This document shows positions 17,767 to 38,893 of a stretch of 64,000 nt of DNA, one piece after another. A model generated the notes under the pieces. It searched no databases, was not told the origin of the DNA, and saw only the letters and a program-made list of their open reading frames with translations. Made by a program: the position numbers and the translations under genes. This DNA comes from Escherichia phage vB_Eco_slurp01. The stretch lies in the sequence record LT603033. One strand, written 5' to 3'. Every line of letters starts with the position of its first letter. Positions within the stretch are counted from its first letter, which is position 1.

Positions 17767-17771
17767 AGTAC

Positions 17772-18150: not shown

Positions 18151-18167
18151 TATAGTACTGAATCACT

Positions 18168-18196
18168 AGCCCACCTTAAACAGTGGGCTTTTTTGT
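18168..18196 (+). terminator. Intrinsic terminator
   Basis: AGCCCAC-CTTAAACA-GTGGGCT + TTTTTT; identical copy at 18894. Confidence 0.8.
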
Positions 18197-18238
18197 TTTG
18201 TAGTACTGCATACTTTAAAAATAGTTTTAAAAAAGTAG

Positions 18239-18266
18239 TTGACATTACCACAAAAAGGCGTAGAAT
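18239..18266 (+). promoter_or_regulatory. Early promoter with long structured leader
   Basis: TTGACA N16 TAGAAT; ~110-nt leader 18275-18385 related to 15966 element. Confidence 0.65.
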
Positions 18267-18389
18267 GTATTACATCAAGACGGGGAGCACTAAGTAGACC
18301 GCCAGTAAGTCGAACGAAAAACTGGACACGTCGATAAAACTTTGATACACTAATAAACGTAAACTAAACTTTAATTGAGGATTTATAAA

Positions 18390-18872: not shown

Positions 18873-18893
18873 CAATTAAAGTACTGAATCAAT

Positions 18894-18921
18894 AGCCCAC
18901 CTTAAACAGTGGGCTTTTTTG
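18894..18921 (+). terminator. Intrinsic terminator (duplicate of 18168)
   Basis: Same hairpin + T-run. Confidence 0.8.
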
Positions 18922-19074
18922 TGTCTATAGTATTCCAGTCCACTAGCACCGCCTAGAATCGATTCTAACGCATTAAACTGATTATCTGATACATCGCCCT
19001 AGCTGGTGGCGTTAAGGTCGTTAGAAAGCGATTGAGAGTGTTTAAAGTATTTTGCAAAAAGTAATAAAAAGTAC

Positions 19075-19102
19075 TTGCATGATTAAGAGATTAGCGTATA
19101 AT
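19075..19102 (+). promoter_or_regulatory. Early promoter
   Basis: TTGCAT N16 TATAAT; hairpin ~19115-19132. Confidence 0.65.
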
Positions 19103-19156
19103 GTTTTACATCGAAAGGGGAAACGGTTCTCCTTCCAAATCAAAGGAATCAAAACA

Positions 19157-19384
19157 ATGGCTATTATCATTACTCGCGTATCTGGTACTACTGGCAATTC
19201 TTCTACTGTTGCAGTCATTACTAACAAGGCAGGTGCGGAATTGCAAAATGCAATGAATACCTGGGCCGTTAATGAGTTCGGTCAGTGGGCAAGTGTAGCA
19301 TACATTGAAACCTATCAAGTGCCGACCATTAGTTTAACGGATCTTGGTGTGGAACGTATCCTTTGCTTGGATGAATTAAATTAA
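19157..19384 (+). CDS. Hypothetical early protein (75 aa)
   Basis: ORF 19052..19384 trimmed to MAIIITRV after AAAGGAAT RBS. Confidence 0.65.
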   Translation: MAIIITRVSGTTGNSSTVAVITNKAGAELQNAMNTWAVNEFGQWASVAYIETYQVPTISLTDLGVERILCLDELN

Positions 19385-19392
19385 AAAAGTAC

Positions 19393-19420
19393 TTGCAAAG
19401 TAAATCGAATAAAGTATAAT
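19393..19420 (+). promoter_or_regulatory. Early promoter
   Basis: TTGCAA N16 TATAAT; hairpin GGGGAGAA-ATGA-TTCTCCCC at 19433-19452. Confidence 0.7.
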
Positions 19421-19469
19421 ACATTACATCAAGGGGAGAAATGATTCTCCCCACTACAAGGAAACTAAT

Positions 19470-19613
19470 ATGAAAACTTGTCAATGTGGTAAAAAATCTA
19501 TTACTGGTTTAAAGCGGGGCGTTGCTCTTTGCCAGTACCATTATAATTTACAAGTATGGGGTAAAGAATGGGCCGACCAGGTGGAAGCAATTAAGAAAGC
19601 AAAAAGTAAGTAA
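19470..19613 (+). CDS. Small Cys/His-containing protein (47 aa), possible zinc ribbon
   Basis: Own translation MKTCQCGKKSITGLKRGVALCQYHYNLQVWGKEW...; below ORF-track cutoff. Confidence 0.45.
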   Translation: MKTCQCGKKSITGLKRGVALCQYHYNLQVWGKEWADQVEAIKKAKSK

Positions 19614-19632
19614 AAATATTATCACAGTACTA

Positions 19633-19661
19633 TTGACATAGTTTGATAGTACTGGCATAAT
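19633..19661 (+). promoter_or_regulatory. Early promoter (class without downstream hairpin)
   Basis: TTGACA N17 CATAAT. Confidence 0.7.
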
Positions 19662-19702
19662 AGATTTTATCAAGACAACATATTAATTTAAGGAATACTA
19701 AA

Positions 19703-20026
19703 ATGGCTAAAACTATCATTAACACCGTTTCCCTGGCTGCAATCCGTGCAATCAATGTTGACGGTAAACGTTGGACTGATTCATATGGCAATACTTATCA
19801 TTCTTGTCATGTAAGCGTCGAACTGGATAACGGTTTGAATGTTCTGGCGGTTGAATCATTTACTTATGGCTATGAAGATGCATATCAACAAACGGCGTTA
19901 GATCTATTAAAGGAATCAGTAGACGGGCTTAATACTGATGAAACCTCCCTTACTCGTTTGTGCAATGATCTTAATATCCCGTTGCATTGTACTGTACAGA
20001 ATGTTAAACGCAAAAAAGATCTTTAA
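19703..20026 (+). CDS. Hypothetical early protein (107 aa); paralog of 26137..26460
   Basis: ORF track; shared RWTDSxGNTYHSC...FTYGY...VKRKKD. Confidence 0.75.
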   Translation: MAKTIINTVSLAAIRAINVDGKRWTDSYGNTYHSCHVSVELDNGLNVLAVESFTYGYEDAYQQTALDLLKESVDGLNTDETSLTRLCNDLNIPLHCTVQNVKRKKDL

Positions 20027-20106
20027 TTAGCTTTACTTTATGCAGATACTTTGATATAGTGTCTGCATAGGGGAAAGAAATTAAATTAACTTAAGAGGAT
20101 CGTATA

Positions 20107-20376
20107 ATGAAAAATATCAGTACTTTAATCGATGCAGGTACACATGTTCGGCGGTCTATGGTTGCAACCAGTACTACAAAACAAGTAGCAAGCGGTTATC
20201 TTGTATTTGTGCACGATGGTAAACTCCTGGAACGTTCAATCAATTTTGATGTTAAAAACAATTGCCGTTTTATTATCTTTAAGCGTGAACAATATAAAAT
20301 TGATTTGCCAGCGAAGCCCATTAGCGGGGCGTACAACGTGCAATCATTGTTTGAGCGTCAACCATACACCTATTGA
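20107..20376 (+). CDS. Hypothetical protein (89 aa)
   Basis: ORF track; AAGAGGA RBS. Confidence 0.65.
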   Translation: MKNISTLIDAGTHVRRSMVATSTTKQVASGYLVFVHDGKLLERSINFDVKNNCRFIIFKREQYKIDLPAKPISGAYNVQSLFERQPYTY

Positions 20377-20427
20377 TCAAATCATCGTTAGTGGTCGATT
20401 TAGGCCGCTTATATTGGGGATTATACC

Positions 20428-20700
20428 ATGAACGTTAATCAAGTACTAAATGAAGTTGAAAGCATCATTAAACCAATGAAACGTATTGATGCAATGCTAA
20501 CACCGGAAGAATGCCGCCTTTATGAGCGTTACAGCGTCGAACAAGTCCAGGCGATGGCTATGGCTACCCCTGCCGTTAAACAGCCTGAGAATGCGTTACA
20601 GGACGTTACAGGGGATTATATCATTAATCCAGTACTAGGGAAGATTACACCAATCACCGAAGAAGAAAAAGACTACTTAAGCCAGTACTTAAAAGGTTAA
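20428..20700 (+). CDS. Hypothetical protein (90 aa)
   Basis: ORF track. Confidence 0.6.
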   Translation: MNVNQVLNEVESIIKPMKRIDAMLTPEECRLYERYSVEQVQAMAMATPAVKQPENALQDVTGDYIINPVLGKITPITEEEKDYLSQYLKG

Positions 20701-20705
20701 TTAAT

Positions 20706-20915
20706 ATGCTTACTGTACAGGATAAGATCGACATCTTAAAGGTTAATATGTATGTGATTGATGCAGATCCTGAAAAAGTATTTGCATACGATGATTCTAA
20801 TCGTAGTCCTTTTTATTGTAGTCATGTAGTTGGATACGTGCCGTTAGCGTATGTTATCGAAAGAGTGGTTGATTCAGCATACAAACATTTTTTAGAAAAT
20901 AATACTTGCAATTAG
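20706..20915 (+). CDS. Hypothetical protein (69 aa)
   Basis: ORF track; stop lies inside the next promoter. Confidence 0.55.
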   Translation: MLTVQDKIDILKVNMYVIDADPEKVFAYDDSNRSPFYCSHVVGYVPLAYVIERVVDSAYKHFLENNTCN

Positions 20916-20933
20916 TTTTTAGTACTGTATAAT
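20906..20933 (+). promoter_or_regulatory. Early promoter
   Basis: TTGCAA N16 TATAAT; hairpin ~20946-20967. Confidence 0.7.
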
Positions 20934-20984
20934 AGTTTACATGAAGTGGAGAAATAGTTCTCCCCACTAATTAAGGAATATGAA

Positions 20985-21131
20985 ATGAAAGCATCAAAAA
21001 AGAGTACTAATAAGAAAGCACGTTCAACTTTAGATGGGGTATTCCCTTTGCGTTTTGTGGATGAAGTGGTTTCCTACCCGCTGGGGCTTACTCCTGAGAT
21101 GGTAGAAAGTTTACGTAAATCTAAAAAATAA
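20985..21131 (+). CDS. Hypothetical small basic protein (48 aa)
   Basis: Own translation MKASKKSTNKKARSTLDGVFPLRF...; below ORF-track cutoff. Confidence 0.45.
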   Translation: MKASKKSTNKKARSTLDGVFPLRFVDEVVSYPLGLTPEMVESLRKSKK

Positions 21132-21134
21132 TAC

Positions 21135-21162
21135 TTGCAATTAGTTTTTAGTACTGTATAAT
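21135..21162 (+). promoter_or_regulatory. Early promoter
   Basis: TTGCAA N16 TATAAT; hairpin 21175-21194. Confidence 0.7.
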
Positions 21163-21212
21163 AGTTTACATGAAGGGGAGAAATGATTCTCCCCAAGAAC
21201 AGGAGAAATAAA

Positions 21213-21365
21213 ATGAAACAATATAATGCTCGGTTTGATGTTACTATCGGTAACGGTAAAGGTCAATTTTCTTTCAGTACTCGACGCAGTTATACAGAAA
21301 ACTTCCTGCGTAATTGTGCACTGACCGCCGCTCAAATTAAACATTATTTTCAGGCTAAAAAATGA
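21213..21365 (+). CDS. Hypothetical small protein (50 aa)
   Basis: ORF 21183..21365 trimmed to MKQYNARF after AGGAGAAA RBS. Confidence 0.55.
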   Translation: MKQYNARFDVTIGNGKGQFSFSTRRSYTENFLRNCALTAAQIKHYFQAKK

Positions 21366-21451
21366 AATCATTAGCTTATTACAGTTCGGCCCTGGTCGTT
21401 GCATTGATCGCGGCGTTGTTAGTAACCTATCTATTCTTTATGGTGATTTAA
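21362..21451 (+). CDS. Tiny hydrophobic peptide (29 aa), predicted single transmembrane helix
   Basis: Own translation MKSLAYYSSALVVALIAALLVTYLFFMVI; ATGA coupling. Confidence 0.35.
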   Translation: MKSLAYYSSALVVALIAALLVTYLFFMVI

Positions 21452-21589
21452 ATGAATCCTAACGGTATAATTTACAGTACTCCTAAAACGAAAGCAGACA
21501 AGGTAAACGCTAAAAAAGCGAAAGTAAAGGAGTACATCAAGCAAGGCATGACGCGAAAGGCGGCGATTCTAAAAGCTAAAAATAAATGA
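21452..21589 (+). CDS. Small basic protein (45 aa)
   Basis: Own translation MNPNGIIYSTPKTKADKVNAKKAKVKEYIKQGMTRKAAILKAKNK. Confidence 0.4.
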   Translation: MNPNGIIYSTPKTKADKVNAKKAKVKEYIKQGMTRKAAILKAKNK

Positions 21590-21595
21590 AAAAAG

Positions 21596-21720
21596 TGGTT
21601 GACTTCGGTCAGCCATTTTGCTATTATATATTCATTGAGAGATAGCTCACTAGCCCACAGGGTGCAGGAGTGTATCTATTGTATAATGTTTGAGTACTGA
21701 AAACTATTTTTAAAAAAGTA
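21596..21720 (+). repeat. Repeated intergenic module (hairpin overlapping TTGACT-N17-TATTAT promoter + CCCACAGGGTGC motif), copy 1
   Basis: Other copies at 25196-25320, 28463-28600, 30726-30870. Confidence 0.7.
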
Positions 21721-21721
21721 C

Positions 21722-21749
21722 TTGAAAACTATCTCAATTGGCGTATAAT
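21722..21749 (+). promoter_or_regulatory. Early promoter
   Basis: TTGAAA N16 TATAAT; hairpin 21764-21780. Confidence 0.65.
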
Positions 21750-21800
21750 GTTTTACATCGCAAGGGGAAACGGTTTCCCCTGGTAATAAGGAAACGAATC

Positions 21801-22142
21801 ATGACTATCTCAATTGCTCAATCTAACTTTGAAAATGAAATCATCGCCCAGGTACTGCGTTTAAATGATGGTCGGGCCGAAATTAATTACGGTTTCAATT
21901 CAGGCGGTTGTGAAAACTATCAGTACTTTGTAACGGCTGATGGCGGTGTCCTGGGCATCAATACAGTTATTGTAAACATCCAAAAAATTAATTTCAATGA
22001 TCCAGACGATAGCCAGTTTTACATCACTGGCGTAGACGTGAACTATGAGGATGACTCACTAACTGATGATTACACTGGTGAGCGGTTAGAAAGTGCTTAT
22101 GGTGAAGATGATTATCAGTCAGTACCGGAAGATTTCGAATAA
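21801..22142 (+). CDS. Hypothetical early protein (113 aa)
   Basis: ORF 21738..22142 trimmed to MTISIAQ after AAGGAAAC RBS. Confidence 0.7.
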   Translation: MTISIAQSNFENEIIAQVLRLNDGRAEINYGFNSGGCENYQYFVTADGGVLGINTVIVNIQKINFNDPDDSQFYITGVDVNYEDDSLTDDYTGERLESAYGEDDYQSVPEDFE

Positions 22143-22155
22143 TATAAAAAATAGT

Positions 22156-22183
22156 TTGACAATAGATTATAGTACTGTATAAT
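22156..22183 (+). promoter_or_regulatory. Early promoter
   Basis: TTGACA N16 TATAAT; hairpin GGGGAGAA-TAG-TTCTCCCC at 22196-22214. Confidence 0.7.
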
Positions 22184-22234
22184 AGTTTACATCAAGGGGA
22201 GAATAGTTCTCCCCACTAACAGAGAAAAAACAAA

Positions 22235-22447
22235 ATGGCTAATATCCGCACTGTACTGAAAAATGCAAAACAAGTTTTATTTTCTGATCATGATACTTTC
22301 AACAAGGATATTACTGGCGTTCGGAATATCAAAGATGTAAAAAGTGTTATGGGTATCTATTGCAATATGAAACGTGTTGGAACGTTCGGCGACAAAGTAC
22401 TATACCAGGCAGGGGATTACAATTTTACACTGACTATCATTAACTAA
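22235..22447 (+). CDS. Hypothetical early protein (70 aa)
   Basis: ORF track. Confidence 0.7.
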   Translation: MANIRTVLKNAKQVLFSDHDTFNKDITGVRNIKDVKSVMGIYCNMKRVGTFGDKVLYQAGDYNFTLTIIN

Positions 22448-22466
22448 AAATATTATCACAGTACTA

Positions 22467-22495
22467 TTGACATAGTTTGATAGTACTGACATAAT
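22467..22495 (+). promoter_or_regulatory. Early promoter (no-hairpin class)
   Basis: TTGACA N17 CATAAT. Confidence 0.7.
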
Positions 22496-22530
22496 AAGTT
22501 TTATCAACTACACTACTAAGGAATTAAAAA

Positions 22531-22710
22531 ATGGCTATCATCGCAAAAACTGAAATCATCGGCCTGGATTCTATCATCATGACGTTTGAAGATCAAAAAG
22601 GTATGTATGTGGTTTCCTATGGTGATTATGTTCGGGAGTATGAAACGGTAGACGAAGCCTTTGAAAGTTACATTCGCCAGGTGAATAAAGCATACGACGA
22701 CTACCGCTAA
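22531..22710 (+). CDS. Hypothetical small protein (59 aa)
   Basis: Own translation MAIIAKTEIIGLDSIIMTFEDQKG...; AAGGAATT RBS. Confidence 0.5.
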   Translation: MAIIAKTEIIGLDSIIMTFEDQKGMYVVSYGDYVREYETVDEAFESYIRQVNKAYDDYR

Positions 22711-22737
22711 AATATATTACCAGTACTATTAAAGATA

Positions 22738-22765
22738 TTGACAACGTTTGATAGTACTGTATAAT
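22738..22765 (+). promoter_or_regulatory. Early promoter
   Basis: TTGACA N16 TATAAT. Confidence 0.7.
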
Positions 22766-22808
22766 AAGTTTTATCAACAGTAGTTAACTTAACCTAAGAG
22801 AGAAACAA

Positions 22809-22913
22809 AATGATCGCACTGGATTCATTCATCGACGCAGTACTGGCAAAAACTGGCGAGGATCTGACCGCAGAACAATACGCAATGATCGAGCAATGCC
22901 AGCAAGACGGTAA
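22809..22913 (+). CDS. Short ORF (34 aa) with a more protein-like continuation in the +1 frame to 22953; possible frameshifted gene
   Basis: ATG after AAGAGAGA RBS; GGG run at 22859-22861 shifts frame. Confidence 0.3.
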   Translation, partial: NDRTGFIHRRSTGKNWRGSDRRTIRNDRAMPARR

Positions 22914-22959
22914 ATCGGTGAAAGATACTGTTAAGATTATCCGCAAGATGTAAGATTAT

Positions 22960-22990
22960 AGCCCACTGGTTAACGCTGGTGGGCTTTAAT
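22960..22990 (+). terminator. Putative terminator
   Basis: AGCCCAC...GTGGGCT stem then T-rich; stem includes a Chi octamer. Confidence 0.5.
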
Positions 22991-23058
22991 TCATTACCCT
23001 ATACAATGCCAGTACTAAACCGTTTATCTCCTTAGAATGCGTTACAGGACGTTTGACA

Positions 23059-23256
23059 ATGATTAGCATGAAATCAGTACAAAAACAAATAGAAACATTA
23101 TCAAAAATTAAACGTAAACAGTACTCGTTAGAATATACAATCAATGGTAACTATCATCTAATGAAAGAGAATAATTTCATTGTCATTGATGAATCATTGC
23201 AAATCATTAGTATAGTACTGAAAGCATTAATCAATGACAGAAAAAAATTAAAATAA
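23059..23256 (+). CDS. Hypothetical protein (66 aa)
   Basis: ORF track (TTG start at 23053) trimmed to first ATG; no clear promoter. Confidence 0.45.
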   Translation: MISMKSVQKQIETLSKIKRKQYSLEYTINGNYHLMKENNFIVIDESLQIISIVLKALINDRKKLK

Positions 23257-23260
23257 TATA

Positions 23261-23289
23261 TTGACAATATCCTCCAGTACTGGCATAAT
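23261..23289 (+). promoter_or_regulatory. Promoter followed by ~290-bp non-coding leader
   Basis: TTGACA N17 CATAAT. Confidence 0.65.
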
Positions 23290-23587
23290 ACTTACATCAA
23301 GACGAGAACGTCACTAACCCATAGGGTGCACAAATGTAACTGTATAATATTGATCAAAAAATGATCTGATCAATACTTGATCAATTTGCGTAAAGTAGTA
23401 TAATTCTATGCAGTTGGTTAGACGAAAGGTTATGATTAGTAGTGCAAGTGTATAAAAATTTTCATGGTGTATCGTTTCGCACATATGGGGATGAATATGT
23501 GGTATCATGTGGATTGGAAAAAGTAAGAACAAGTAATATTATTGTCGCATTACAGTACTATAGTATTTTTATAATGAGGTTAAAATA
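23290..23587 (+). ncRNA. Candidate non-coding RNA or long leader with clustered TGATCA/GATC
   Basis: No plus-strand ORF; TTGATCAA x3 + GATCTGATCAA within 23340-23395. Confidence 0.3.
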
Positions 23588-23845
23588 ATGGCTGTAGGAT
23601 TCGCGAAAGATGGGGCCGAACAAGACGAGATTAACGCAGTGATTCAGGCCGCCGTTAACCACGCTAGAAAGCAAATTAACGCACAAATAGAATCACTGAT
23701 ACATTGCCTCGACTGCGGCGATATAATCCCTGAGAAACGACGCCAGGCCGTTAAGGGGTGTAAGTACTGCATAACTTGCCAGGAGGATCATGATAGTACT
23801 TTTAAACGTCCCCCGCGTAATTGTTGGCATAGATCTATGAGATAA
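23588..23845 (+). CDS. TraR/DksA-family C4 zinc-finger protein (85 aa)
   Basis: CLDCGDIIPEKRRQAVKGCKYC fits C-x2-C-x3-I-P-x2-R...C-x2-C signature. Confidence 0.6.
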   Translation: MAVGFAKDGAEQDEINAVIQAAVNHARKQINAQIESLIHCLDCGDIIPEKRRQAVKGCKYCITCQEDHDSTFKRPPRNCWHRSMR

Positions 23846-23851
23846 AAAGTA

Positions 23852-23880
23852 TTGACAGTACTATCCAGTAGTGTTATAGT
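23852..23880 (+). promoter_or_regulatory. Early promoter
   Basis: TTGACA N17 TATAGT; hairpin GGGGAA-ACATC-TTCCCC at 23892-23908. Confidence 0.65.
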
Positions 23881-23926
23881 ACTTACATCAAGGGGAAACA
23901 TCTTCCCCTACTAAGAGGAAATGAAA

Positions 23927-24115
23927 ATGGAAAACTTATCAAGTATTTTAGTACAAGATGATTTCGGTAATCCTGGAAGTGCTATCATTGTTCGGGGTAA
24001 TAAAGCAACATTTGTTATTGCTGGTGGACCTGTACAGCGTAGCATTAAAAATAATGCTGTTACCATTAATAATGTACGCTATCGCTTAGATAAAGAATTG
24101 ATTCATAAACTGTAA
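23927..24115 (+). CDS. Hypothetical early protein (62 aa)
   Basis: ORF 23921..24115; second ATG has better RBS spacing. Confidence 0.6.
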   Translation: MENLSSILVQDDFGNPGSAIIVRGNKATFVIAGGPVQRSIKNNAVTINNVRYRLDKELIHKL

Positions 24116-24142
24116 TATTAATTTAATAGAGGATAACAATAA

Positions 24143-24466
24143 ATGTACATTCATACTACTATCACAAAGGAAGTCCGTTGCCAGTTCGAAAGTATTCCGG
24201 GCGTATGTTTCATCACTGGTACGTTTTCCCCTGGTGATCGTGATAATCCAGTACTGTTACAATTACGCCATCCATCATGGGATAAAGCATTTGATCTACC
24301 GTTGAATGAATTCGCAACTACTGCTGAAAAGTACATTAAAAATATTCGCGAGAATGATCGACTATTCATTAATGCTTTTAGTGATTCCGCGTTAAGCGAG
24401 ATCCACGGCGTATTGGTTGCAATCATGGAATCAATGGAGAAAACTAAATTCAAACAAGGTGAATAA
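24143..24466 (+). CDS. Hypothetical protein (107 aa)
   Basis: ORF track; GAGGATAA RBS. Confidence 0.65.
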   Translation: MYIHTTITKEVRCQFESIPGVCFITGTFSPGDRDNPVLLQLRHPSWDKAFDLPLNEFATTAEKYIKNIRENDRLFINAFSDSALSEIHGVLVAIMESMEKTKFKQGE

Positions 24467-24472
24467 AAACTA

Positions 24473-24500
24473 TTGACAAGATAATCTAGTACTGTATAAT
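24473..24500 (+). promoter_or_regulatory. Early promoter
   Basis: TTGACA N16 TATAAT; hairpin 24513-24532. Confidence 0.7.
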
Positions 24501-24549
24501 AAGTTACATGAAGGGGAGAAATGATTCTCCCCACTAAGAGGAAAGAAAA

Positions 24550-24762
24550 ATGCAAGGTCAACTAATCGTTCGTAAATGGTCTGATACTAACGAAAAACCG
24601 TGGGATGTACAATACATCGGACCGGATGGGGTATCACGTTATCAGCCAGGCGTAACGCATAGTACTGAGCAATATGCCGCCGCTCACCGCGAACGCCTGT
24701 TAGAATCCATGAAACAGGGATTCTGTGAAAAATTCATTCAAGATCATTGGCTGAAAGATTAA
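24550..24762 (+). CDS. Hypothetical early protein (70 aa)
   Basis: ORF track; AAGAGGAAAG RBS. Confidence 0.7.
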   Translation: MQGQLIVRKWSDTNEKPWDVQYIGPDGVSRYQPGVTHSTEQYAAAHRERLLESMKQGFCEKFIQDHWLKD

Positions 24763-24779
24763 TAGAAGGAGTACAGCTT

Positions 24780-24872
24780 ATGCAAATGAATCCGATGATT
24801 ATTGTTTTAGCTGTACTTATGATCATTCATGCAATAGTAGAAGTATTAACGCAATCAGGAGTAATAAAATGA
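24780..24872 (+). CDS. Tiny hydrophobic peptide (30 aa), predicted transmembrane
   Basis: Own translation MQMNPMIIVLAVLMIIHAIVEVLTQSGVIK; GAAGGAG RBS. Confidence 0.45.
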   Translation: MQMNPMIIVLAVLMIIHAIVEVLTQSGVIK

Positions 24873-25051
24873 TTCAAGTAGAATTATCAGTACTAAAAGA
24901 TCTGTTTTATCGGATTGGTACTACTGGCGAATATCCGAAGGGTGATAATGCAAAACTTTACGTATCACTCGACTTATGGCAACGCGAACAATTAGCAACG
25001 GCCTGGCGTAAAGGCAAAGCAGATAGCGAGGTGAAAGCATGAAAGAATTCT
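24869..25051 (+). CDS. Hypothetical small protein (60 aa)
   Basis: Own translation MIQVELSVLKDLFYRIGTTGEYPKG...; ATGA overlap. Confidence 0.45.
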
Positions 25052-32092: not shown

Positions 32093-32157
32093 AGAAAAAA
32101 GTCAAGGCGTTTTTAAAATTATGCGTTAAAAAAATGCATAGGTAATCCCTTGACTTT
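32093..32157. repeat. 13-bp perfect inverted repeat AAAAAAGTCAAGG...CCTTGACTTTTTT flanking a ~40-bp spacer
   Basis: Read directly; sits at the boundary between early region and family B array. Confidence 0.6.
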
Positions 32158-32257
32158 TTTGAAATAAAAGGGATTGGACTATGGCAAAATGCGTAGGGGG
32201 CTAAAGGGCGGGTAACCTTAGCGACTTCGATAAAGGGGTATTACGAATAAAATGTTA

Positions 32258-32285
32258 TTGACTTTTTATATGAATCGTATAAAAT
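32258..32285 (+). promoter_or_regulatory. Promoter at head of family B array
   Basis: TTGACT N16 TAAAAT. Confidence 0.5.
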
Positions 32286-32315: not shown

Positions 32316-32513
32316 ATGCGTATTTTAACTAAAGAACAGCACCACGAAAGACTTATCAATAACATGGCTATGATAATGTATAAGTCCCATGACCGTGGTA
32401 TTGCCTATAAGCGTGAATTAATTATGGCACTATTCATTGGAACTAACTTTCAGGAAAGGTATGTCAACGATTGGATTTGGTATTTAATTGAAGATATAAC
32501 GAGTAAACTATGA
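32316..32513 (+). CDS. Small protein, tandem paralog family B (C-terminal LGTNYQ-type motif)
   Basis: ORF 32286..32513 trimmed to MRILTKEQ after AAGGGAG; motif FIGTNFQERYV. Confidence 0.6.
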   Translation: MRILTKEQHHERLINNMAMIMYKSHDRGIAYKRELIMALFIGTNFQERYVNDWIWYLIEDITSKL

Positions 32514-32710
32514 AAATGCGTATTTTAAATAAAGAAGAATATCAATCACTGTTACGTAAAAACTACGTAAAGATTTACAACACAGACACACATGTAGAAC
32601 GAATGGAGTTATACCTTTTGATTACATTGGGAACAAACTATCAGGGTAGATGGGTGTGGCAATATATGGATACATTGAAAAATAAAATATTGTCCACGAG
32701 GAAACAATGA
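32510..32710 (+). CDS. Family B small protein
   Basis: ORF track; ATGA overlap; LGTNYQGRWV. Confidence 0.6.
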   Translation: MKMRILNKEEYQSLLRKNYVKIYNTDTHVERMELYLLITLGTNYQGRWVWQYMDTLKNKILSTRKQ

Positions 32711-32916
32711 AAACTATAACACGAACCCAATCATACGGTCTTATCTTGAAATACATGGACTTAATGGTGGATATCAGCAAAGACCTGCCTAAAACTGAAA
32801 TTGAAGTTGCAAGAGCAGAGATCCGCATGTTGGCTGTACTGAACACAAACCATCAGGAAGATTATGTTGAAGAATGGATTCGATTTTTAATAGAAGATAT
32901 TAAGAGTAAAATATGA
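32707..32916 (+). CDS. Family B small protein
   Basis: ORF track; LNTNHQEDYV. Confidence 0.6.
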   Translation: MKTITRTQSYGLILKYMDLMVDISKDLPKTEIEVARAEIRMLAVLNTNHQEDYVEEWIRFLIEDIKSKI

Positions 32917-33128
32917 TTATTATAGAAAACTCATATCAATATACTGAACGCATCGCTGCCAGACAACTTGAAATCCTCATAATATACGAAGAGACGTCTG
33001 ATTTAAACTTAGCCGAGGTATTGGAAAATGAAATACTTTTGGGTGCATTCTTGGGAACAGACTATCAGGAGTATTATGAGGAAAAGTATTTGTCATCTCT
33101 TGAGAAATACATCAGGAGCAAATTATGA
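32913..33128 (+). CDS. Family B small protein
   Basis: ORF track; LGTDYQEYYE. Confidence 0.6.
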   Translation: MIIIENSYQYTERIAARQLEILIIYEETSDLNLAEVLENEILLGAFLGTDYQEYYEEKYLSSLEKYIRSKL

Positions 33129-33337
33129 TTATATTAACACCTGAAGAATATAAGAAACGTTTTAATTCTGTCCAGACTGAAATATTACTTATATACCTTT
33201 CAAATGCAGACCTTAACTTATCAAGGGCAATGGAGAAGGATTTACTTATGGGTGCATTTTTGGATACAGACTTTCAGGAGTATTATGTAGGGAAATACTT
33301 AATTGAACTTCAGAACTACATTAAGAGTAAACTATGA
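33125..33337 (+). CDS. Family B small protein
   Basis: ORF track; LDTDFQEYYV. Confidence 0.6.
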   Translation: MIILTPEEYKKRFNSVQTEILLIYLSNADLNLSRAMEKDLLMGAFLDTDFQEYYVGKYLIELQNYIKSKL

Positions 33338-33561
33338 AACATTTAAGTAATATTGAGAAGATGAGAATTATCATTGATGCATTAAACAAATACGATACCC
33401 TTTTACAAATAAAAGGTTTAACTCGATTGGAACACAAGATAAACACCACCGATGTACGCATGTTGGCTGTACTGGGGACGAACTTCCAGGAAGAGTATGT
33501 TATTGCACACATAGTTGCACTCAAGAATTACATTATGGACAAATGTAATGAACATCATTAA
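33334..33561 (+). CDS. Family B small protein
   Basis: ORF track; LGTNFQEEYV. Confidence 0.6.
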   Translation: MKHLSNIEKMRIIIDALNKYDTLLQIKGLTRLEHKINTTDVRMLAVLGTNFQEEYVIAHIVALKNYIMDKCNEHH

Positions 33562-33772
33562 TAACTTTGAATACGAGGCCCGTGCTAAGAGTGCCAGAAA
33601 AAAAGAGAACACCATTTACTTCACTATGATGTACTTACAATGGACTGAAATTGAAGAAAAGGTTGCTGAAGTATGGATGTTGGAATTCATGGGGACGCAG
33701 TATCAGAATAGGTTTGCGGGTGAGTATATCGATGTTCTTATGAAACAAATAGAAAGAAAGGAAAAGAACTAA
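33548..33772 (+). CDS. Family B small protein
   Basis: ORF 33515..33772 trimmed; MGTQYQNRFA. Confidence 0.5.
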   Translation: MNIINNFEYEARAKSARKKENTIYFTMMYLQWTEIEEKVAEVWMLEFMGTQYQNRFAGEYIDVLMKQIERKEKN

Positions 33773-33930
33773 TGGTTTTCATTAACATATCTGACCAACT
33801 CGATACTAAACTAGAAGTCGAGCAGAGTGAGGGATGGATGCTGTACTTTCTTGGAACTTCTCATCAAAATTTTTATATCCATGAACACATAGTTGCACTC
33901 ACAAATCTAATAAGGGATAAATGTAAATGA
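33772..33930 (+). CDS. Family B small protein (52 aa, below ORF-track cutoff)
   Basis: Own translation MVFINISDQLDTKLEVEQSEGWMLYFLGTSHQNFYIHEHIVAL... Confidence 0.5.
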   Translation: MVFINISDQLDTKLEVEQSEGWMLYFLGTSHQNFYIHEHIVALTNLIRDKCK

Positions 33931-34184
33931 AACACTTGACGGACGATGAATATTCACTTAGAATTCGAAAGCTCACCCCAGAAGCAAGAGTAATCTACGA
34001 TGACGATGCACTTTCATGGAACGAGATGAAAGTTAAAGTTCATGAGCTATGGTTGCTGTACTTTGTGGGAACCCAATATCAAGAGAAATATTGTACCGAT
34101 TATCTTGAACAACTAATGGATTTTATACAGATAAAACTAAATGAACGAATTGTGGAAAAATATGAAAACTTTATCAAGCACTGA
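33927..34184 (+). CDS. Family B small protein
   Basis: ORF track; VGTQYQEKYC. Confidence 0.6.
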   Translation: MKHLTDDEYSLRIRKLTPEARVIYDDDALSWNEMKVKVHELWLLYFVGTQYQEKYCTDYLEQLMDFIQIKLNERIVEKYENFIKH

Positions 34185-34413
34185 GTATCAGACTGCCCTC
34201 TTCTCTCTTCTAAACACCCTTCGCACTAACAATAAACTTTATAATTCCCGTGAAGCTGATATCGTCAACGCTGATGTATATCTTAATAAATTCATAGGGA
34301 CTAACTATCAAGAACTGTTCACTCTACGATATATCTCTGCATTGAGAAACGAAATATCAGATAAAACCCGCCAAGCCAGAAGAGAATGGAATAAACAATG
34401 CGACAAAGACTAA
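34162..34413 (+). CDS. Family B small protein
   Basis: ORF 34141..34413, start ambiguous (34141 or 34162); IGTNYQELF. Confidence 0.5.
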   Translation: MKTLSSTEYQTALFSLLNTLRTNNKLYNSREADIVNADVYLNKFIGTNYQELFTLRYISALRNEISDKTRQARREWNKQCDKD

Positions 34414-34646
34414 ATCACAAAATGTATTGTAAACTATTGCAGACACTGGCACAGAAACACTATGACACGGTATCTGAAATATTACCCTATGATATCATGC
34501 GTTTACTTCACTGTGAAGCCGAGATGCTTGTACTGATGACAGGCACTGATAAAACAGCAATCGCCAGATCGATAGAGCAATATATTGATGCACACTACCA
34601 ACACATGAGAACCGAAATCTGGAGGAAAGAGAATGATAATTCTTAA
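34398..34646 (+). CDS. Family B-related small protein
   Basis: ORF track; divergent motif MTGTDKTAIARSIEQYI. Confidence 0.55.
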   Translation: MRQRLNHKMYCKLLQTLAQKHYDTVSEILPYDIMRLLHCEAEMLVLMTGTDKTAIARSIEQYIDAHYQHMRTEIWRKENDNS

Positions 34647-34848
34647 TGAGTATCAGTATCATTGGAGGTTACAAACTATCAAATCAAAAGTGTATAGTAT
34701 TGTGTTAAACAAATCTATTGCACAAGAGGACAAATGTGTTATAATAGCTGAAATGAAGTTGGGTGTATTCGTAGGGACAAACTATCAAAACATCTACACT
34801 GACGTATTATTAAGTTCCTTACGTAACAAGGTGGTATCCAAAATATGA
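34633..34848 (+). CDS. Family B small protein
   Basis: ORF track; VGTNYQNIYT. Confidence 0.6.
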   Translation: MIILNEYQYHWRLQTIKSKVYSIVLNKSIAQEDKCVIIAEMKLGVFVGTNYQNIYTDVLLSSLRNKVVSKI

Positions 34849-35063
34849 GAAATTTACAAGGCTTTGAATACATCAGACTCCTGAAAACATGTGGAAGCAG
34901 AAGGAGAATGATATCAAGCGATAAGAGCATCCAAGCTAACCTTAAGCACGCACTAGTAACTGAACTCTATGTAGGTGCACTCTTAGGCACAAACTATCAA
35001 CAAATGTATGTAGATCTATGGATTGACGCTCTACAGAAAGAGGTTAAAAGTAAATGCAAATGA
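34845..35063 (+). CDS. Family B small protein
   Basis: ORF track; LGTNYQQMYV. Confidence 0.6.
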   Translation: MRNLQGFEYIRLLKTCGSRRRMISSDKSIQANLKHALVTELYVGALLGTNYQQMYVDLWIDALQKEVKSKCK

Positions 35064-35272
35064 TTAATTTAAGTAAAGACGAATTTTATGTTATACTGGC
35101 GAAAACTTATCCAGCACGTAAGGCCGTTTATGATAGTCACATTATTGAACCCTCAAAGAAGTTGATTTTAGTAAATGAGATAAAGATGCTTTCAGTCTTA
35201 GGAACAAACTATCAAGAGAATGCTGTACTGATGTTAATTGATGCCCTCCAGCGAGAGGTTAAACGTAAATGA
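35054..35272 (+). CDS. Family B small protein
   Basis: ORF track; LGTNYQENAV. Confidence 0.6.
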   Translation: MQMINLSKDEFYVILAKTYPARKAVYDSHIIEPSKKLILVNEIKMLSVLGTNYQENAVLMLIDALQREVKRK

Positions 35273-35499
35273 AAATGATTCATTTAACTTACCATGAATA
35301 TCAAAAACGTTTAAATGCATCCAGAGATATAAGGATTCAAATATTCAATAACAAAAGATTGAAGCCTGATATCAGAAAAATCAAAATTATAGAAGCAGAG
35401 TTATGCAACTTTCTAGGGACCAACTATCAGGCAGGTAAGGTAAAAAACTATCTTAGAGAACTAATGAATAGTATTGAAAATAAATGTAAGGGTAATTAA
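35269..35499 (+). CDS. Family B small protein
   Basis: ORF track; LGTNYQAGKV. Confidence 0.6.
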   Translation: MKMIHLTYHEYQKRLNASRDIRIQIFNNKRLKPDIRKIKIIEAELCNFLGTNYQAGKVKNYLRELMNSIENKCKGN

Positions 35500-35500
35500 C

Positions 35501-35740
35501 ATGAAAATGATTAAATTATCTCAAGCAAAATATAAAGAACGCCTGGTAAAAATTGCACCTGGACTTAATGAAATCCATCACGGAGAAGTCATTAAACACG
35601 GAAATAAGATGATTATGAAACTTGAGTTAAAGGTGGGTGCATTCATAGGAACAAACTATCAGGAGTATTATGTAGATGAATACATAATCGCACTTAAGAG
35701 ATATATTGGAAGAAAACTATATCTACAAACTAAAGAATAG
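35501..35740 (+). CDS. Family B small protein
   Basis: ORF 35474..35740 (TTG) trimmed to ATG; IGTNYQEYYV. Confidence 0.55.
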   Translation: MKMIKLSQAKYKERLVKIAPGLNEIHHGEVIKHGNKMIMKLELKVGAFIGTNYQEYYVDEYIIALKRYIGRKLYLQTKE

Positions 35741-35769
35741 TATTGAAAATAAATGTGAGGTTGATGAAC

Positions 35770-36033
35770 ATGCAAATGATCAATTTAAGTAAAGATGAAT
35801 ATACCGAGCGTATGACAAAAATTACGCACAAACGTAATACAATCTATCACAACCCAGAAATTCAACACAGTAAGAAAATGATTATGATGCGTGAGTTAAA
35901 GATGGGTGTATTCTTAGGAACAAACTATCAAGATACAGAAGTAAATCGCTTAATCGCGGAGTTACTACTGGAAATCAGAGGTAAGCTGTACTTTCATCAA
36001 ATGACCCAACCACTGAGGTGTACTAAGAAATGA
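35770..36033 (+). CDS. Family B small protein
   Basis: Trimmed to MQMINLSKDEY; upstream 35716-35762 duplicates 35458-35503. Confidence 0.55.
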   Translation: MQMINLSKDEYTERMTKITHKRNTIYHNPEIQHSKKMIMMRELKMGVFLGTNYQDTEVNRLIAELLLEIRGKLYFHQMTQPLRCTKK

Positions 36034-36245
36034 TCAACATCACATTGCAAGAAAGATTCATCCGAATCAACTATGCAATTACCAAATTAGATGCTACTAT
36101 AGGATTCCAAAGTCTACCATACAAAACCAGATTGTTATTAGAGTGTGAAGCTAAGTTGGGTGTACTGTTAGGGACGCAACACCAACAACGATATGTGGAA
36201 ATCTGGATTGACCTTTTAACCCAAAATATATATGAGAGAATGTAA
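36030..36245 (+). CDS. Family B small protein
   Basis: ORF track; LGTQHQQRYV. Confidence 0.6.
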   Translation: MINITLQERFIRINYAITKLDATIGFQSLPYKTRLLLECEAKLGVLLGTQHQQRYVEIWIDLLTQNIYERM

Positions 36246-36476
36246 ATGCAAAATGAAATGATATACTTAACGAATGAAGAATTTCAAGAGAAGATGTTAA
36301 AAACCAAAAACATTACTCTTAAGTTCGGTCCAAATCAATCAATATCTGAAGTATCTGCAAATGTATTGTTTCAGAAGCTACCATACGTTCTTGGAACTGA
36401 TAAACAAGAATTTATGGTTCAAAATATGATTGAACATCTTATGATGAGTATTAAGGAAAAAGTAAATGCAAAATGA
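36246..36476 (+). CDS. Family B-related small protein
   Basis: ORF track; LGTDKQEFMV. Confidence 0.6.
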   Translation: MQNEMIYLTNEEFQEKMLKTKNITLKFGPNQSISEVSANVLFQKLPYVLGTDKQEFMVQNMIEHLMMSIKEKVNAK

Positions 36477-36720
36477 AATGATATACTTAACCTATAATGA
36501 ATACGTCGAGAGATTAGTTCGTGCCAAGAGATATACCAATAAACGTCCAATTGACCTAAACCAAACCCCAGCAGAAAGGAGTGCAGAAGTATTATTCCAA
36601 TCACTACCATACCTTCTTGGAACTGATAGACAAGAGGAATATGTTGCACGTATGATTAGATATCTTAAAATCACTATTAAGGAAAAAGTAAATGCAAATG
36701 AAATACTTAACAGACGATGA
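36466..36720 (+). CDS. Family B-related small protein
   Basis: ORF track; LGTDRQEEYV; same first 9 codons as 36246. Confidence 0.6.
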   Translation: MQNEMIYLTYNEYVERLVRAKRYTNKRPIDLNQTPAERSAEVLFQSLPYLLGTDRQEEYVARMIRYLKITIKEKVNANEILNRR

Positions 36721-36943
36721 GTTAAAAGAACGACTAATTAAATCAAGAAAACATACAAATCAACTTCCAAACGACACAAACAAGTCTCCAGCGGAAAGGA
36801 GTGCAGAAGTTTTATACATTCAACTCATGTACTTTCTTGGCACTGACAGACAAGAGTATTACATTGAAAGTATGCTTCGATATCTTAAATTCTCTATAAA
36901 GGAAAAGATACATGATCAAGTATTTAAAAATCCTAACAGTTAA
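36692..36943 (+). CDS. Family B-related small protein
   Basis: ORF track; LGTDRQEYYI. Confidence 0.6.
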   Translation: MQMKYLTDDELKERLIKSRKHTNQLPNDTNKSPAERSAEVLYIQLMYFLGTDRQEYYIESMLRYLKFSIKEKIHDQVFKNPNS

Positions 36944-37154
36944 TGAATATCATAAGATTGTAATGAAAACTAATAGTGATTACGCTAAAAAATCAAACCC
37001 AAAGTACATACTGGAACACACATTTGAAGAACGTCAATTAGCTTTAGTTGAAGCAAAACTTCTTGCACTCCTAGGAACAAACTATCAGGAAGAATACATC
37101 AGAAAACTAATATACCTTTTAACTAAACATATAAGAAAAAGAAAAAATGCATGA
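36912..37154 (+). CDS. Family B small protein
   Basis: ORF track; LGTNYQEEYI. Confidence 0.6.
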   Translation: MIKYLKILTVNEYHKIVMKTNSDYAKKSNPKYILEHTFEERQLALVEAKLLALLGTNYQEEYIRKLIYLLTKHIRKRKNA

Positions 37155-37381
37155 AACACTTGACAGATGATGAACATGGACTTATAGTAATGGATGTAAT
37201 CAACATCGAATACAAAAAGTTGATACGCTACCGTTGTTATGAAGATAAGCAACTCGTTCTAGCAGAACAGAAGTTGTTTCGACTCTTAAACACAAACTTC
37301 CAAGCACAATACGAAGAATCGTATATGTACCTTTTGGCGAGGAAAGCAAAAAGAGATTATGAAAATTTTAAGCAAAGGTGA
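37151..37381 (+). CDS. Family B small protein
   Basis: ORF track; LNTNFQAQYE. Confidence 0.6.
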   Translation: MKHLTDDEHGLIVMDVINIEYKKLIRYRCYEDKQLVLAEQKLFRLLNTNFQAQYEESYMYLLARKAKRDYENFKQR

Positions 37382-37580
37382 TTCAGTAATATTACTTATA
37401 GAGAGTTCAAGTAAATTCTTAAACATAACACTGTCTGATATAGATGAAGATGACAAAGAAGTACTGAGAGCAGATTTAAGAGTACTGTTACATATCGGAA
37501 CAAACCTACAAGAAGAATATGTAGAGTGCTACATTAATGAACTTAAAGAATCAGTACTGAGAAAATGCAAATGCAAATGA
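37359..37580 (+). CDS. Family B small protein
   Basis: ORF track; IGTNLQEEYV. Confidence 0.55.
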   Translation: MKILSKGDSVILLIESSSKFLNITLSDIDEDDKEVLRADLRVLLHIGTNLQEEYVECYINELKESVLRKCKCK

Positions 37581-37804
37581 AAATCATTTCACCCACAGAA
37601 TACAACCAACTATTAAGTAGTTTAATTCTAAAGCTGTTTATAACAAAAAGCATGAAATTACCAGATGATGAAATAAGTATTCTAGTAAGTGAAATCTATG
37701 TTCAAGCTACACTAGGGACTAACTATCAAGAATGCAATATTAATGATTACATCAATGAACTAAAAAGGTTTATCCAATGCAAATGCGAATCATTACCGAA
37801 GTAG
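37565..37804 (+). CDS. Family B small protein
   Basis: ORF track; LGTNYQECNI. Confidence 0.6.
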   Translation: MQMQMKIISPTEYNQLLSSLILKLFITKSMKLPDDEISILVSEIYVQATLGTNYQECNINDYINELKRFIQCKCESLPK

Positions 37805-38019
37805 AATACCTAACAATCATAAATGGACTGTTTTCGAAGTTATTTGCCATTAACACATCAAAACTTCCAGATTCTGATAAAATTATTAAGTTAAATGAAA
37901 TCTACGTTCAAGCTACTCTAGGAACAAACTATCAAGAAGCCAATGTGTATAATTACATTAATACACTCAAAAGGGTAATACAATTAAAATGCACAGACAG
38001 CACACACACAAACCCCTAG
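37777..38019 (+). CDS. Family B small protein
   Basis: ORF track; LGTNYQEANV; close paralog of 37565. Confidence 0.6.
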   Translation: MQMRIITEVEYLTIINGLFSKLFAINTSKLPDSDKIIKLNEIYVQATLGTNYQEANVYNYINTLKRVIQLKCTDSTHTNP

Positions 38020-38219
38020 GAACAGCAGAATACATTGAACTAATGGCTGCAAACTTCTCATCCTTTAAGAAACTGATGCAAGAATCAAAGAATGATTTAG
38101 AATATCACATCAAAAGTTCAGATTTAAGATTGCTACTCACTCTAGGAACAGATTCCCAAGAGCGATTTGTCAATGAGCATATTAGAGCACTTTTAAATGG
38201 CATCAGGAATAAACTATGA
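37989..38219 (+). CDS. Family B small protein
   Basis: ORF track; LGTDSQERFV. Confidence 0.6.
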   Translation: MHRQHTHKPLGTAEYIELMAANFSSFKKLMQESKNDLEYHIKSSDLRLLLTLGTDSQERFVNEHIRALLNGIRNKL

Positions 38220-38431
38220 AGGAAATATCAAATCAAGAGTACTTGGCACTATTCAGGAAGAATAATCACAAATATATGGCACTTGATTCAAGAACTGATA
38301 TAAGTGAACTTGAAAAAAATCTTTTGCGTTCAGAGATGATAGTACTGACACTCTTAGGAACACAGCATCAAGAGAGAACTGTTAATTCACACATAGGGAT
38401 TCTTATGCAGATAGTTCAGGAAAAGATATGA
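38216..38431 (+). CDS. Family B small protein
   Basis: ORF track; LGTQHQERTV. Confidence 0.6.
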   Translation: MKEISNQEYLALFRKNNHKYMALDSRTDISELEKNLLRSEMIVLTLLGTQHQERTVNSHIGILMQIVQEKI

Positions 38432-38649
38432 GAATCATAACACAACAAGATATTCTTAAGTTCACAAGGGTTCATGCATCTGAATTTGATGCTATATTAT
38501 CAAAAAGTTACAACAACCCTTATACACAAGATGTACATTACAGTGAATTATGGATGTATATACTTTTAGGTACAAATAAGCAAGAGCAAGCCGTACAGAA
38601 GTATTTGACAGCTTTACGTGATGCTACTGCTAATGGAGTATGTGTTTAA
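38428..38649 (+). CDS. Family B small protein
   Basis: ORF track; LGTNKQEQAV. Confidence 0.6.
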   Translation: MRIITQQDILKFTRVHASEFDAILSKSYNNPYTQDVHYSELWMYILLGTNKQEQAVQKYLTALRDATANGVCV

Positions 38650-38650
38650 T

Positions 38651-38893
38651 ATGAAAGTACTGACAGAACTAGAAATGTATCATAGATTTAATAAGTACTA
38701 TCATTTACTTAAGCCTATACAGAGGATTAAATGTCCATTTGAAGAGAAACAGGTTTTAATCTATGAGCACAAGTTCTTTGTATCATTAGGTACAGATCAA
38801 CAAGAGTACTATTTGACGTTGTACTTGATTACATTAATAGATTTAATTCACTATAAAACCAAACAAGCTAATAAAGAGAAATATGAAAACTAA
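38651..38893 (+). CDS. Family B small protein
   Basis: ORF 38618..38893 trimmed; LGTDQQEYYL. Confidence 0.55.
   Translation: MKVLTELEMYHRFNKYYHLLKPIQRIKCPFEEKQVLIYEHKFFVSLGTDQQEYYLTLYLITLIDLIHYKTKQANKEKYEN

Follow-up and report, generated by a model that had tools for sequence, protein, structure and literature searches.

A tandem array of 30 mini-protein genes beside the terminal repeat of the jumbo coliphage slurp01

Tandem, lineage-specific gene expansions are already known in jumbo phages. The closest described case is a one-sentence mention of such an array in phage 121Q, in which the genes were not identified (Hua et al. 2017); the phAPEC6 paper echoes this statement. The jumbo phage G likewise carries a very small protein expanded in tandem to ∼35 copies (Iyer et al. 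2021; Hua et al. 2017). Here we describe an array of 30 mini-protein genes in Escherichia phage vB_Eco_slurp01, within a stretch of 64,000 nucleotides from sequence record LT603033 that is referred to below as the window. The window derives from an Asteriusvirus jumbo coliphage: the array is 97.1% identical to those of G17 and Sharanji, and 35 phage records match. The arrays of the Asteriusvirus phages 121Q, PBECO4, G17, phAPEC6 and Sharanji share family, position and gene order with that of slurp01, and the 121Q array of Hua et al. is likely this family. Comparison of array size, one of the checks proposed in a first-pass annotation of the window made from its letters alone, gave 23–30 copies: 30 here, ∼29 in G17 and PBECO4, 27 in Ecwhy_1, 26 in UE-S1 and 23 in 121Q. 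The arrays of 121Q, G17 and PBECO4 also differ from that of slurp01 in their alleles (47–100% identical). In contrast, the phage G proteins are metal-binding zinc ribbons of unrelated fold, from another host and phage lineage, whereas the slurp01 family is a predicted helical bundle, cysteine-poor and without conserved Cys or His.

More distant parallels concern genome position, copy-number dynamics and fold. The pre-early (first-step-transfer) genes of T5 and the host-takeover module of SPO1 form the same kind of terminal small-gene block. The early genes in the direct terminal repeat (DTR) of PA5oct also resemble the array, being dense, small and co-oriented at a genome end and served by host-type promoters. 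The slurp01 array differs from all three in lying 98 bp outside the repeat and in appearing as one paralog operon rather than many unrelated genes with their own promoters. Poxvirus ‘gene accordions’, reportedly described by Elde et al. in 2012, are one of several conflict-driven kinds of tandem amplification and change copy number by unequal recombination. The array is similar in its unit-wise copy-number change in genes suspected of host interaction. However, accordion copies are recent and near-identical, with fast expansion and collapse, whereas the slurp01 copies are ancient (∼25% identity; DNA repeats ≤87%) and stably diversified. Finally, the staphylococcal protein A Z-domain/affibody, Sbi-IV and Efb-C are stable three-helix-bundle binding modules of ∼60–70 residues with variable surfaces. 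These offer an analogy only. The slurp01 fold has an extra predicted two-residue beta-bridge tying the N-terminus to the GT[ND] turn and bears no sequence relationship to them.

The array occupies window positions 32316–38893 on the + strand, where 30 consecutive open reading frames (ORFs) of 52–90 codons belong to one family; its existence as a tandem mini-protein array is confirmed. The first-pass annotation had pointed to about 30 consecutive paralogs with a C-terminal motif and mostly overlapping stop and start codons, and on both counts it was right. The motif G-T-[NDQS]-x-Q, followed by a heptad-like Y-[VI]-x3-[IL]-x2-L-x3-[IV]-x2-K, is carried by 30/30 ORFs. A profile hidden Markov model (HMM) built from the 30 recovered each member from the six-frame window translation at E-values of 1e-17 to 1e-27. 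Neighbouring genes overlap at 25 of the 29 junctions, in 12 cases as ATGA. The mini-protein family is thus genuinely and strongly expanded, as claimed, with sizes reaching below the ∼65–90 aa given there to 52 aa. The further statement that the N-terminal halves differ was overstated: members share the N-terminal motif M-[KR]-x-[IL]-[TS]-x-x-E-Y and can be aligned end to end at a mean pairwise identity of 25%, so these halves are not unrelated. The closest paralog pairs (47–55% identical) are always neighbours, and no stretch of 7–10 columns is conserved throughout the family alignment.

Coding sequence fills 99.5% of the array span. Its + strand is covered completely (100%) by stop-free stretches of 50 codons or more, versus a mean of 22% (maximum 41%) in shuffled sequences; the corresponding fraction on the reverse strand is 34%. 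A Shine–Dalgarno (SD)-like motif precedes 29/30 array starts versus 47% of background ATGs. Rfam, tRNA and TRF scans gave no RNA gene or simple tandem repeat that would account for the region. Judged by its gene and promoter anatomy, the array reads as a single long, translationally coupled operon fed from the 5′ end. Its genes, with the one relic found between them, are as follows (RBS, ribosome-binding site; AF2, AlphaFold2; pLDDT, predicted local distance difference test score).

32316..32513, + strand: B01, 65 aa; RBS AAGGGAG at −12; AF2 pLDDT 97.6
32510..32710, + strand: B02, 66 aa
32707..32916, + strand: B03, 69 aa
32913..33128, + strand: B04, 71 aa
33125..33337, + strand: B05, 70 aa; 50% identity to B04
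33334..33561, + strand: B06, 75 aa
33548..33772, + strand: B07, 74 aa; start as in the G17 annotation
33772..33930, + strand: B08, 52 aa; the shortest, an N-terminally truncated form
33927..34184, + strand: B09, 85 aa
34141..34413, + strand: B10, 90 aa; alternatively 83 aa from the ATG at 34162 (G17 annotation)
34398..34646, + strand: B11, 82 aa; the most divergent, with G-T-D-K-T and a 6-residue insertion
34633..34848, + strand: B12, 71 aa
34845..35063, + strand: B13, 72 aa
35054..35272, + strand: B14, 72 aa
35269..35499, + strand: B15, 76 aa
35501..35740, + strand: B16, 79 aa; C-terminus frameshifted relative to the family consensus
35688..35789, + strand: out-of-frame relic of the family C-terminus (EENYIYKLKNSIENKCE) plus junction, within the B16/B17 junction
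35770..36033, + strand: B17, 87 aa
36030..36245, + strand: B18, 71 aa
36246..36476, + strand: B19, 76 aa; missing from PBECO4
36466..36720, + strand: B20, 84 aa; 55% identity to B19
36692..36943, + strand: B21, 83 aa
36912..37154, + strand: B22, 80 aa
37151..37381, + strand: B23, 76 aa; the sole near-consensus internal promoter-like site of the array begins at 37160
37359..37580, + strand: B24, 73 aa
37565..37804, + strand: B25, 79 aa; unit ∼37582–37787 missing from G17
37777..38019, + strand: B26, 80 aa; 54% identity to B25
37989..38219, + strand: B27, 76 aa
38216..38431, + strand: B28, 71 aa
38428..38649, + strand: B29, 73 aa
38651..38893, + strand: B30, 80 aa; final member of the contiguous array

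The relic is a duplicate of the B15/B16 junction (35439–35664 versus 35708–35933, 74% identity), and the C-terminus of B16 is correspondingly frameshifted. Outside the contiguous array, the same HMM search of the window found four further, diverged members in two pairs.

40163-40396 and 40342-40632 (stop-to-stop), + strand: diverged family pair, HMM E 1.2e-6 and 1.5e-7
53802-54023 and 53989-54192, + strand: diverged family pair, HMM E 2e-6 and 8.7e-13

Structure prediction, also suggested in the first-pass annotation, yielded a confident mini-bundle. The AF2 model of B01, made from the 30-paralog alignment, has the pLDDT listed above and a predicted template modelling score (pTM) of 0.81. It comprises a beta-bridge at residue 2, a helix at 6–24, a second at 28–39, a turn with the bridge at T43, and a third helix at 46–64, a predicted beta-alpha-alpha-beta-alpha fold. 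BFVD models of paralogs from 121Q, UB and slurp01 superpose at template modelling (TM) scores of 0.76–0.98 despite 20–32% identity. The conserved columns of the family are buried-type hydrophobics at i/i+3/i+4 spacing, two helix N-capping boxes ([TS]5-x-x-E8 and G42-T43-[ND]44-x-Q46-E47), the acidic E34 in helix 2 and a C-terminal Lys (K64); the remaining columns are near maximal entropy. Because the conserved columns coincide with the hydrophobic core and the capping boxes, the GTNYQ motif is mainly fold-determining. A catalytic or ligand-binding role for it was considered and rejected: the beta-bridge at T43, the start of helix 3 at Q46 and the parallel [TS]-x-x-E at helix 1 all fit N-capping.

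Nearly every exposed position is variable, so the 30 copies would show 30 different surfaces. The models and compositions describe soluble proteins of 6–10 kDa on one scaffold: hydropathy (GRAVY) is negative and membrane segments are lacking, and across members the isoelectric point (pI) spans 4.3–9.9 and the net charge −8.5 to +8.7, about half being basic. A virion or chaperone role was also rejected. The phAPEC6 virion proteome (62 proteins) contains none from the array region and nothing between gp348 and gp548, and the array is remote from the structural genes.

The recommended remote-homology search succeeded in one collection. PHROG 4148, whose function is unannotated, is matched by 29/30 members (best E 9.3e-27), with residues 1–65 of B01 aligning to profile positions 1–71 of 74. 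Searches of Pfam, NCBIfam and PADLOC gave just single-member chance matches (E ≥0.001) and no family shared by several members, and the best hit of a PDB sequence profile search had an E-value of 0.66. A fold search of the confident model against the PDB found no relative; its best-ranked Foldseek matches, Sbi-IV among them, were not significant (E >4, TM ∼0.5). No helix-turn-helix (HTH) protein appeared among the fold matches or in Pfam, and no basic column is conserved save K64. When 1.84 billion representative proteins were searched exhaustively with the profile, only 85 clusters emerged, all phage-type, with no host homologue or mimic. In 50,697 phage records, tblastn detected the family in 33 Asteriusvirus genomes and three Klebsiella records of the RaK2/K64-1 type, and a consensus-based search for related loci in IMG/VR recovered RaK2 alone.

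Several diverged copies nevertheless occur in each of the two distant relatives examined, neither of which has the single housekeeping copy that would have spoken against the first-pass annotation. In Klebsiella phage K64-1, a 24 kb stretch contains six or more diverged members, three of them forming a tandem trio (gp482–484). A 40.8 kb Logan contig from an uncultured phage (SRR34023385, 29% GC) has at least 12, in small tandem clusters interleaved with the same 150–200 aa paralog family that follows the window array. This contig has no nucleotide similarity to the window but the same layout, small-gene clusters followed by arrays of 150–200 aa paralogs, and it belongs to a lineage of this jumbo-phage clade that is not yet described. 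The multi-copy state is thus old and maintained, and the contiguous 30-gene array is an elaboration of it specific to Asteriusvirus.

Within Asteriusvirus, gene order in the array is conserved and units come and go. A clean one-unit indel of ∼206 nt distinguishes G17 from the window. Its breakpoints fall within homologous sequence, the 5′ ends of B25 and B26, as unequal crossing-over would leave them. Together with the head-to-tail arrangement of the paralogs and the copy-number polymorphism, this unit-length indel forms the pattern expected of the process. The first-pass annotation had read ongoing unequal crossing-over from short DNA duplications at 35458/35716 and 36246/36466. These duplications are real, and the G17 indel and the 23–30 copies support the process. 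However, the longest DNA repeat pairs inside the array are just 74–87% identical, so slurp01 itself holds no very recent duplication. A contig of 3149 bp in ENA encodes a protein of 154 aa (P0001) that joins the B22 and B23 orthologues in a natural fusion lacking their stop/start overlap; the fusion may be genuine or may reflect a sequencing or frameshift artefact. Its AF2 model (pTM 0.49) resolves the second domain poorly, the alignment having covered that domain with one sequence.

Identity between array orthologs is patchy, at 47–100% versus a background ∼95% identical. The divergent patches show raised synonymous (dS) along with nonsynonymous (dN) divergence, which indicates allele replacement by recombination rather than a point-mutational arms race. 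Pooled over the array, dN/dS is 0.36–0.43 in four comparisons versus 0.21–0.29 in 14–78 flanking control genes, and array dN and amino-acid divergence are about twice those of the flanking genes. The sole computed pair above 1 is B06 versus its PBECO4 counterpart (1.19), recombination being a confounder of all these estimates. The pooled ratios suggest no gene-wide positive selection. Substitutions between orthologs concentrate at the positions where paralogs also differ (Spearman 0.76, p 1e-14), and conserved positions change at half the frequency of variable ones. With dN/dS below 1 yet above that of controls, the array genes are selected functional proteins that evolve faster than their neighbours. 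The members also look translated, their RBSs being present and their ORFs intact in all relatives, which answers a doubt raised in the first-pass annotation. The arms-race function proposed there drew mixed support: twofold amino-acid divergence and hypervariable surfaces agree with it, whereas the dN/dS values and the recombination-like patches do not. The specific forms suggested there, anti-defence decoys and proteins aimed at one common host target, found no support in the analysis.

The genomic position of the array can be fixed through G17, whose record carries the DTR at both ends (100% identical over 19,933 nt compared). Its length of 20,668 bp (370,817 − 350,149) is the same as that determined for Sharanji by PhageTerm (PMC11895373), and a terminal repeat of ∼20 kb had been inferred from coverage (Korf 2019). 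Position 1 of G17 corresponds to window 32218, the inner DTR boundary. B01 thus starts 98 bp within the unique region, co-oriented with the DTR; the G17 record holds the array once and the DTR genes twice. Two features upstream of B01 matter here.

12400..32218, + strand: DTR block upstream of the array; inner boundary exact relative to the G17 record, outer boundary approximate (∼12.4 kb, after allowing for indels relative to G17)
32258..32285, + strand: candidate sigma70-type array promoter, TTGACT-16-TAAAAT, a consensus match ∼30 nt upstream of the B01 RBS

The DTR block is dense with transcription signals. Between ∼12.4 and 32.2 kb its + strand contains 22 near-consensus sigma70 promoters, of which ten match the consensus at 12/12 positions (TTGACA-16/17-TATAAT), together with ∼60 small genes and, in the G17 annotation, many terminators. 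One of its ORFs encodes a DksA/TraR-type zinc-finger protein (23588–23845, Pfam E 1.6e-10) and another gives a weak kinase-like match (27815–28456). The 6.6 kb array has a single near-consensus internal site, that at 37160, and no terminator annotated in G17. The candidate promoter is kept in G17, 121Q, Ecwhy_1, UE-S1 and CMSTMSU, and PBECO4 has a different promoter-like sequence, TTGACA-17-TATGAT, directly before B01. An inserted 121-aa gene with its own promoter-like site (PBECO4 19552–19917, ∼window 32290) separates the array promoter from B01 in that phage, whose record annotates just 17 of its ∼29 array genes. Near the DTR boundary, a GC-rich block extends across position 32218, preceded by a conserved inverted repeat at 32144–32175 (AATCCCTT...AAGGGATT). 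The region 32144–32240 is almost invariant across six relatives, and this element may be end-recognition or terminase-related.

Literature searches turned up no transcriptome for any Asteriusvirus, and the pointers to timing come from relatives. The DTR genes of the related PA5oct are highly transcribed 5 min after infection, as measured by RNA-seq (PMC7318152), and in CBB early or host-takeover functions are suspected for a region of short ORFs that has RpoD-like promoters (PMC5259590). By analogy with PA5oct and CBB, and given its position, early expression of the array is plausible. The slurp01 locus shares with early modules of the T5/SPO1/PA5oct type a sigma70-type promoter, recognised by consensus match, and small co-oriented genes. 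Placement directly behind a promoter-dense DTR encoding DksA/TraR-type and kinase-like proteins fits early host-interaction genes.

We favour, at a probability of about 0.45, the reading that the array encodes stoichiometric binders, expressed early and forming a repertoire that serves host takeover or anti-defence; the functional half of this reading we infer. This reading draws on a non-virion family with a stable fold, variable surfaces, selection on the scaffold, unit turnover, allele exchange and an operon placed behind the DTR, with its RNAP-targeting-type and kinase-type proteins. The conserved host-type sigma70 promoter would drive the array, possibly with read-through from the promoter-dense DTR, and each gene would give a soluble, non-virion protein of 6–10 kDa folded as one rigid mini-bundle, in which the conserved residues set the fold and not an active site. 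Unequal crossing-over of adjacent units expands and shrinks the set, and recombination with related phages swaps its alleles. Made early in infection, the proteins would act as stoichiometric binders, each member engaging a different host or competitor protein, either for takeover or to neutralise strain-variable defences. A bolder form of the proposal is possible, though doubtful: the array may be a germline-encoded repertoire of scaffolded binders, the phage counterpart of an affibody library, in which one ultra-stable mini-fold carries ∼30 surfaces, each directed at a different strain-variable defence or takeover target. Array content, altered by unit-wise unequal crossing-over and by alleles exchanged among co-infecting phages, would then help set host range, and the family would have been multi-copy since before the split of the Escherichia and Klebsiella jumbo phages.

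Several observations weigh against binders of this kind. No structural or sequence match to a known inhibitor or anti-defence protein emerged from the PDB fold searches, Pfam, NCBIfam or PADLOC, the PDB comparison having covered solved anti-defence and takeover proteins (Acr, Ocr, Dmd, Tad, Acb, AsiA and others). The conserved polar residues E34, E47 and K64 could still make a shared binding site. The Lys codon context at the family C-terminus doubles as the SD of the next gene, and since K64 and its neighbours overlap that signal, conservation there may be partly nucleotide-level. The array lies 98 bp outside the terminal repeat that would mark an early module, and its expression timing is deduced from position and distant relatives. 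Its dN/dS is well below 1 and just 1.5–1.8 times that of neighbouring genes, with divergent patches in which dS is raised as well, so that a classical arms-race signature is not demonstrated.

Part of this evidence can be read in other ways, all of which we consider unlikely. The strongest competitor holds that the genes are genome filler, near-neutral products of tandem duplication after capsid enlargement in which individual copies do little, in line with the ratchet idea of genome inflation after capsid enlargement (Hua et al. 2017). Copy number ranges over 23–30 with no obvious cost, amino-acid divergence is twice that of the neighbours, and about a dozen other tandem families share the window. 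Filler would not, however, be expected to keep all 30 ORFs intact here and in the well-assembled relatives examined, to retain its RBSs, to show dN/dS of 0.36–0.43 with fold-determining columns changing half as often, or to persist as multi-copy sets in phages without remaining nucleotide similarity. A slightly smaller chance attaches to conflict between phages, in which the proteins would act on co-infecting or resident phages and mobile elements through superinfection exclusion or anti-satellite activity. The early-type position, hypervariable surfaces and copy-number flux fit this equally, and the mosaic alleles imply that relatives often co-infect. Exclusion proteins are in many cases membrane-bound, whereas array members lack membrane segments and show no similarity to known exclusion proteins.

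On a par with conflict between phages is the idea that the paralogs are subunits or adaptors, which co-assemble or dock by a conserved face on a common partner (e.g. RNA polymerase, ribosome or protease) while the variable face recruits clients. Translational coupling through ATGA overlaps is typical of co-assembled subunits, polar residues beyond the core are conserved (E8, E34, N44, Q46, E47 and K64), and P0001 is a natural fusion of neighbours. Yet the capping boxes explain most of these residues, the monomer model is self-contained (pLDDT 97.6), and loss of individual units is tolerated. The P0001 model also shows no confident inter-domain packing, a weak point given its shallow second-half alignment. 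Least probable of all is expansion of nucleic-acid-binding regulators or nucleoid proteins, that is, small transcription factors or DNA coaters. The ∼35 zinc-ribbon copies of phage G have been interpreted in this way (Iyer et al. 2021, PMC7824862), and the slurp01 proteins are small, helical and in about half of cases basic. Against it stand their spread of charge (pI 4.3–9.9) and fold searches devoid of HTH proteins.

Tandem duplications make up much of the window. On the − strand, positions 258–7443 hold six tandem paralogs of ∼370–430 aa with RCC1-repeat domains, whose phAPEC6 counterparts (∼41 kDa ‘DNA condensation proteins’, gp003–010, gp549 and gp551) are virion components by mass spectrometry. 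A tandem family of seven members (60–81 aa) lies at 8159–11723, small paralog trios lie at 7957–12123, 8688–9333 and 41342–43307, and two interleaved ten-member families (54–165 aa and 146–186 aa) occupy 38.9–58.8 kb. Family members also turn up in bacterial data: several NCBI ‘Escherichia coli’ assemblies include contigs of ∼345–360 kb that encode P0007, P0028, P0030, P0049, P0055 and P0071. Complete Asteriusvirus genomes therefore occur in bacterial sequencing projects, whether by a carrier state, by pseudolysogeny or by contamination.

The array itself is no new find, given the mention by Hua et al. (2017), the PHROG 4148 cluster and the hypothetical entries in GenBank. We found no published characterisation of the Asteriusvirus array family in the literature, and all members are annotated ‘hypothetical protein’. 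What appears to be undescribed is the definition of the family, its confident and apparently unrelated mini-fold and the structural reading of its motif. The same seems true of the exact position of the array, next to the DTR boundary and downstream of a conserved promoter, and of the pattern of selection, the unit indel and the clade-wide retention of multiple copies.

Most jumbo-phage genes have no known function (83% in phAPEC6), and tandem paralog families make up much of the extra DNA. The slurp01 array is among the largest single-family expansions seen in any phage, and it makes testable whether such families are functional host-interaction repertoires or genome filler. If its members are indeed specific binders of host or defence proteins, the array would be a compact source of new inhibitors, as well as a natural, highly stable binding scaffold.

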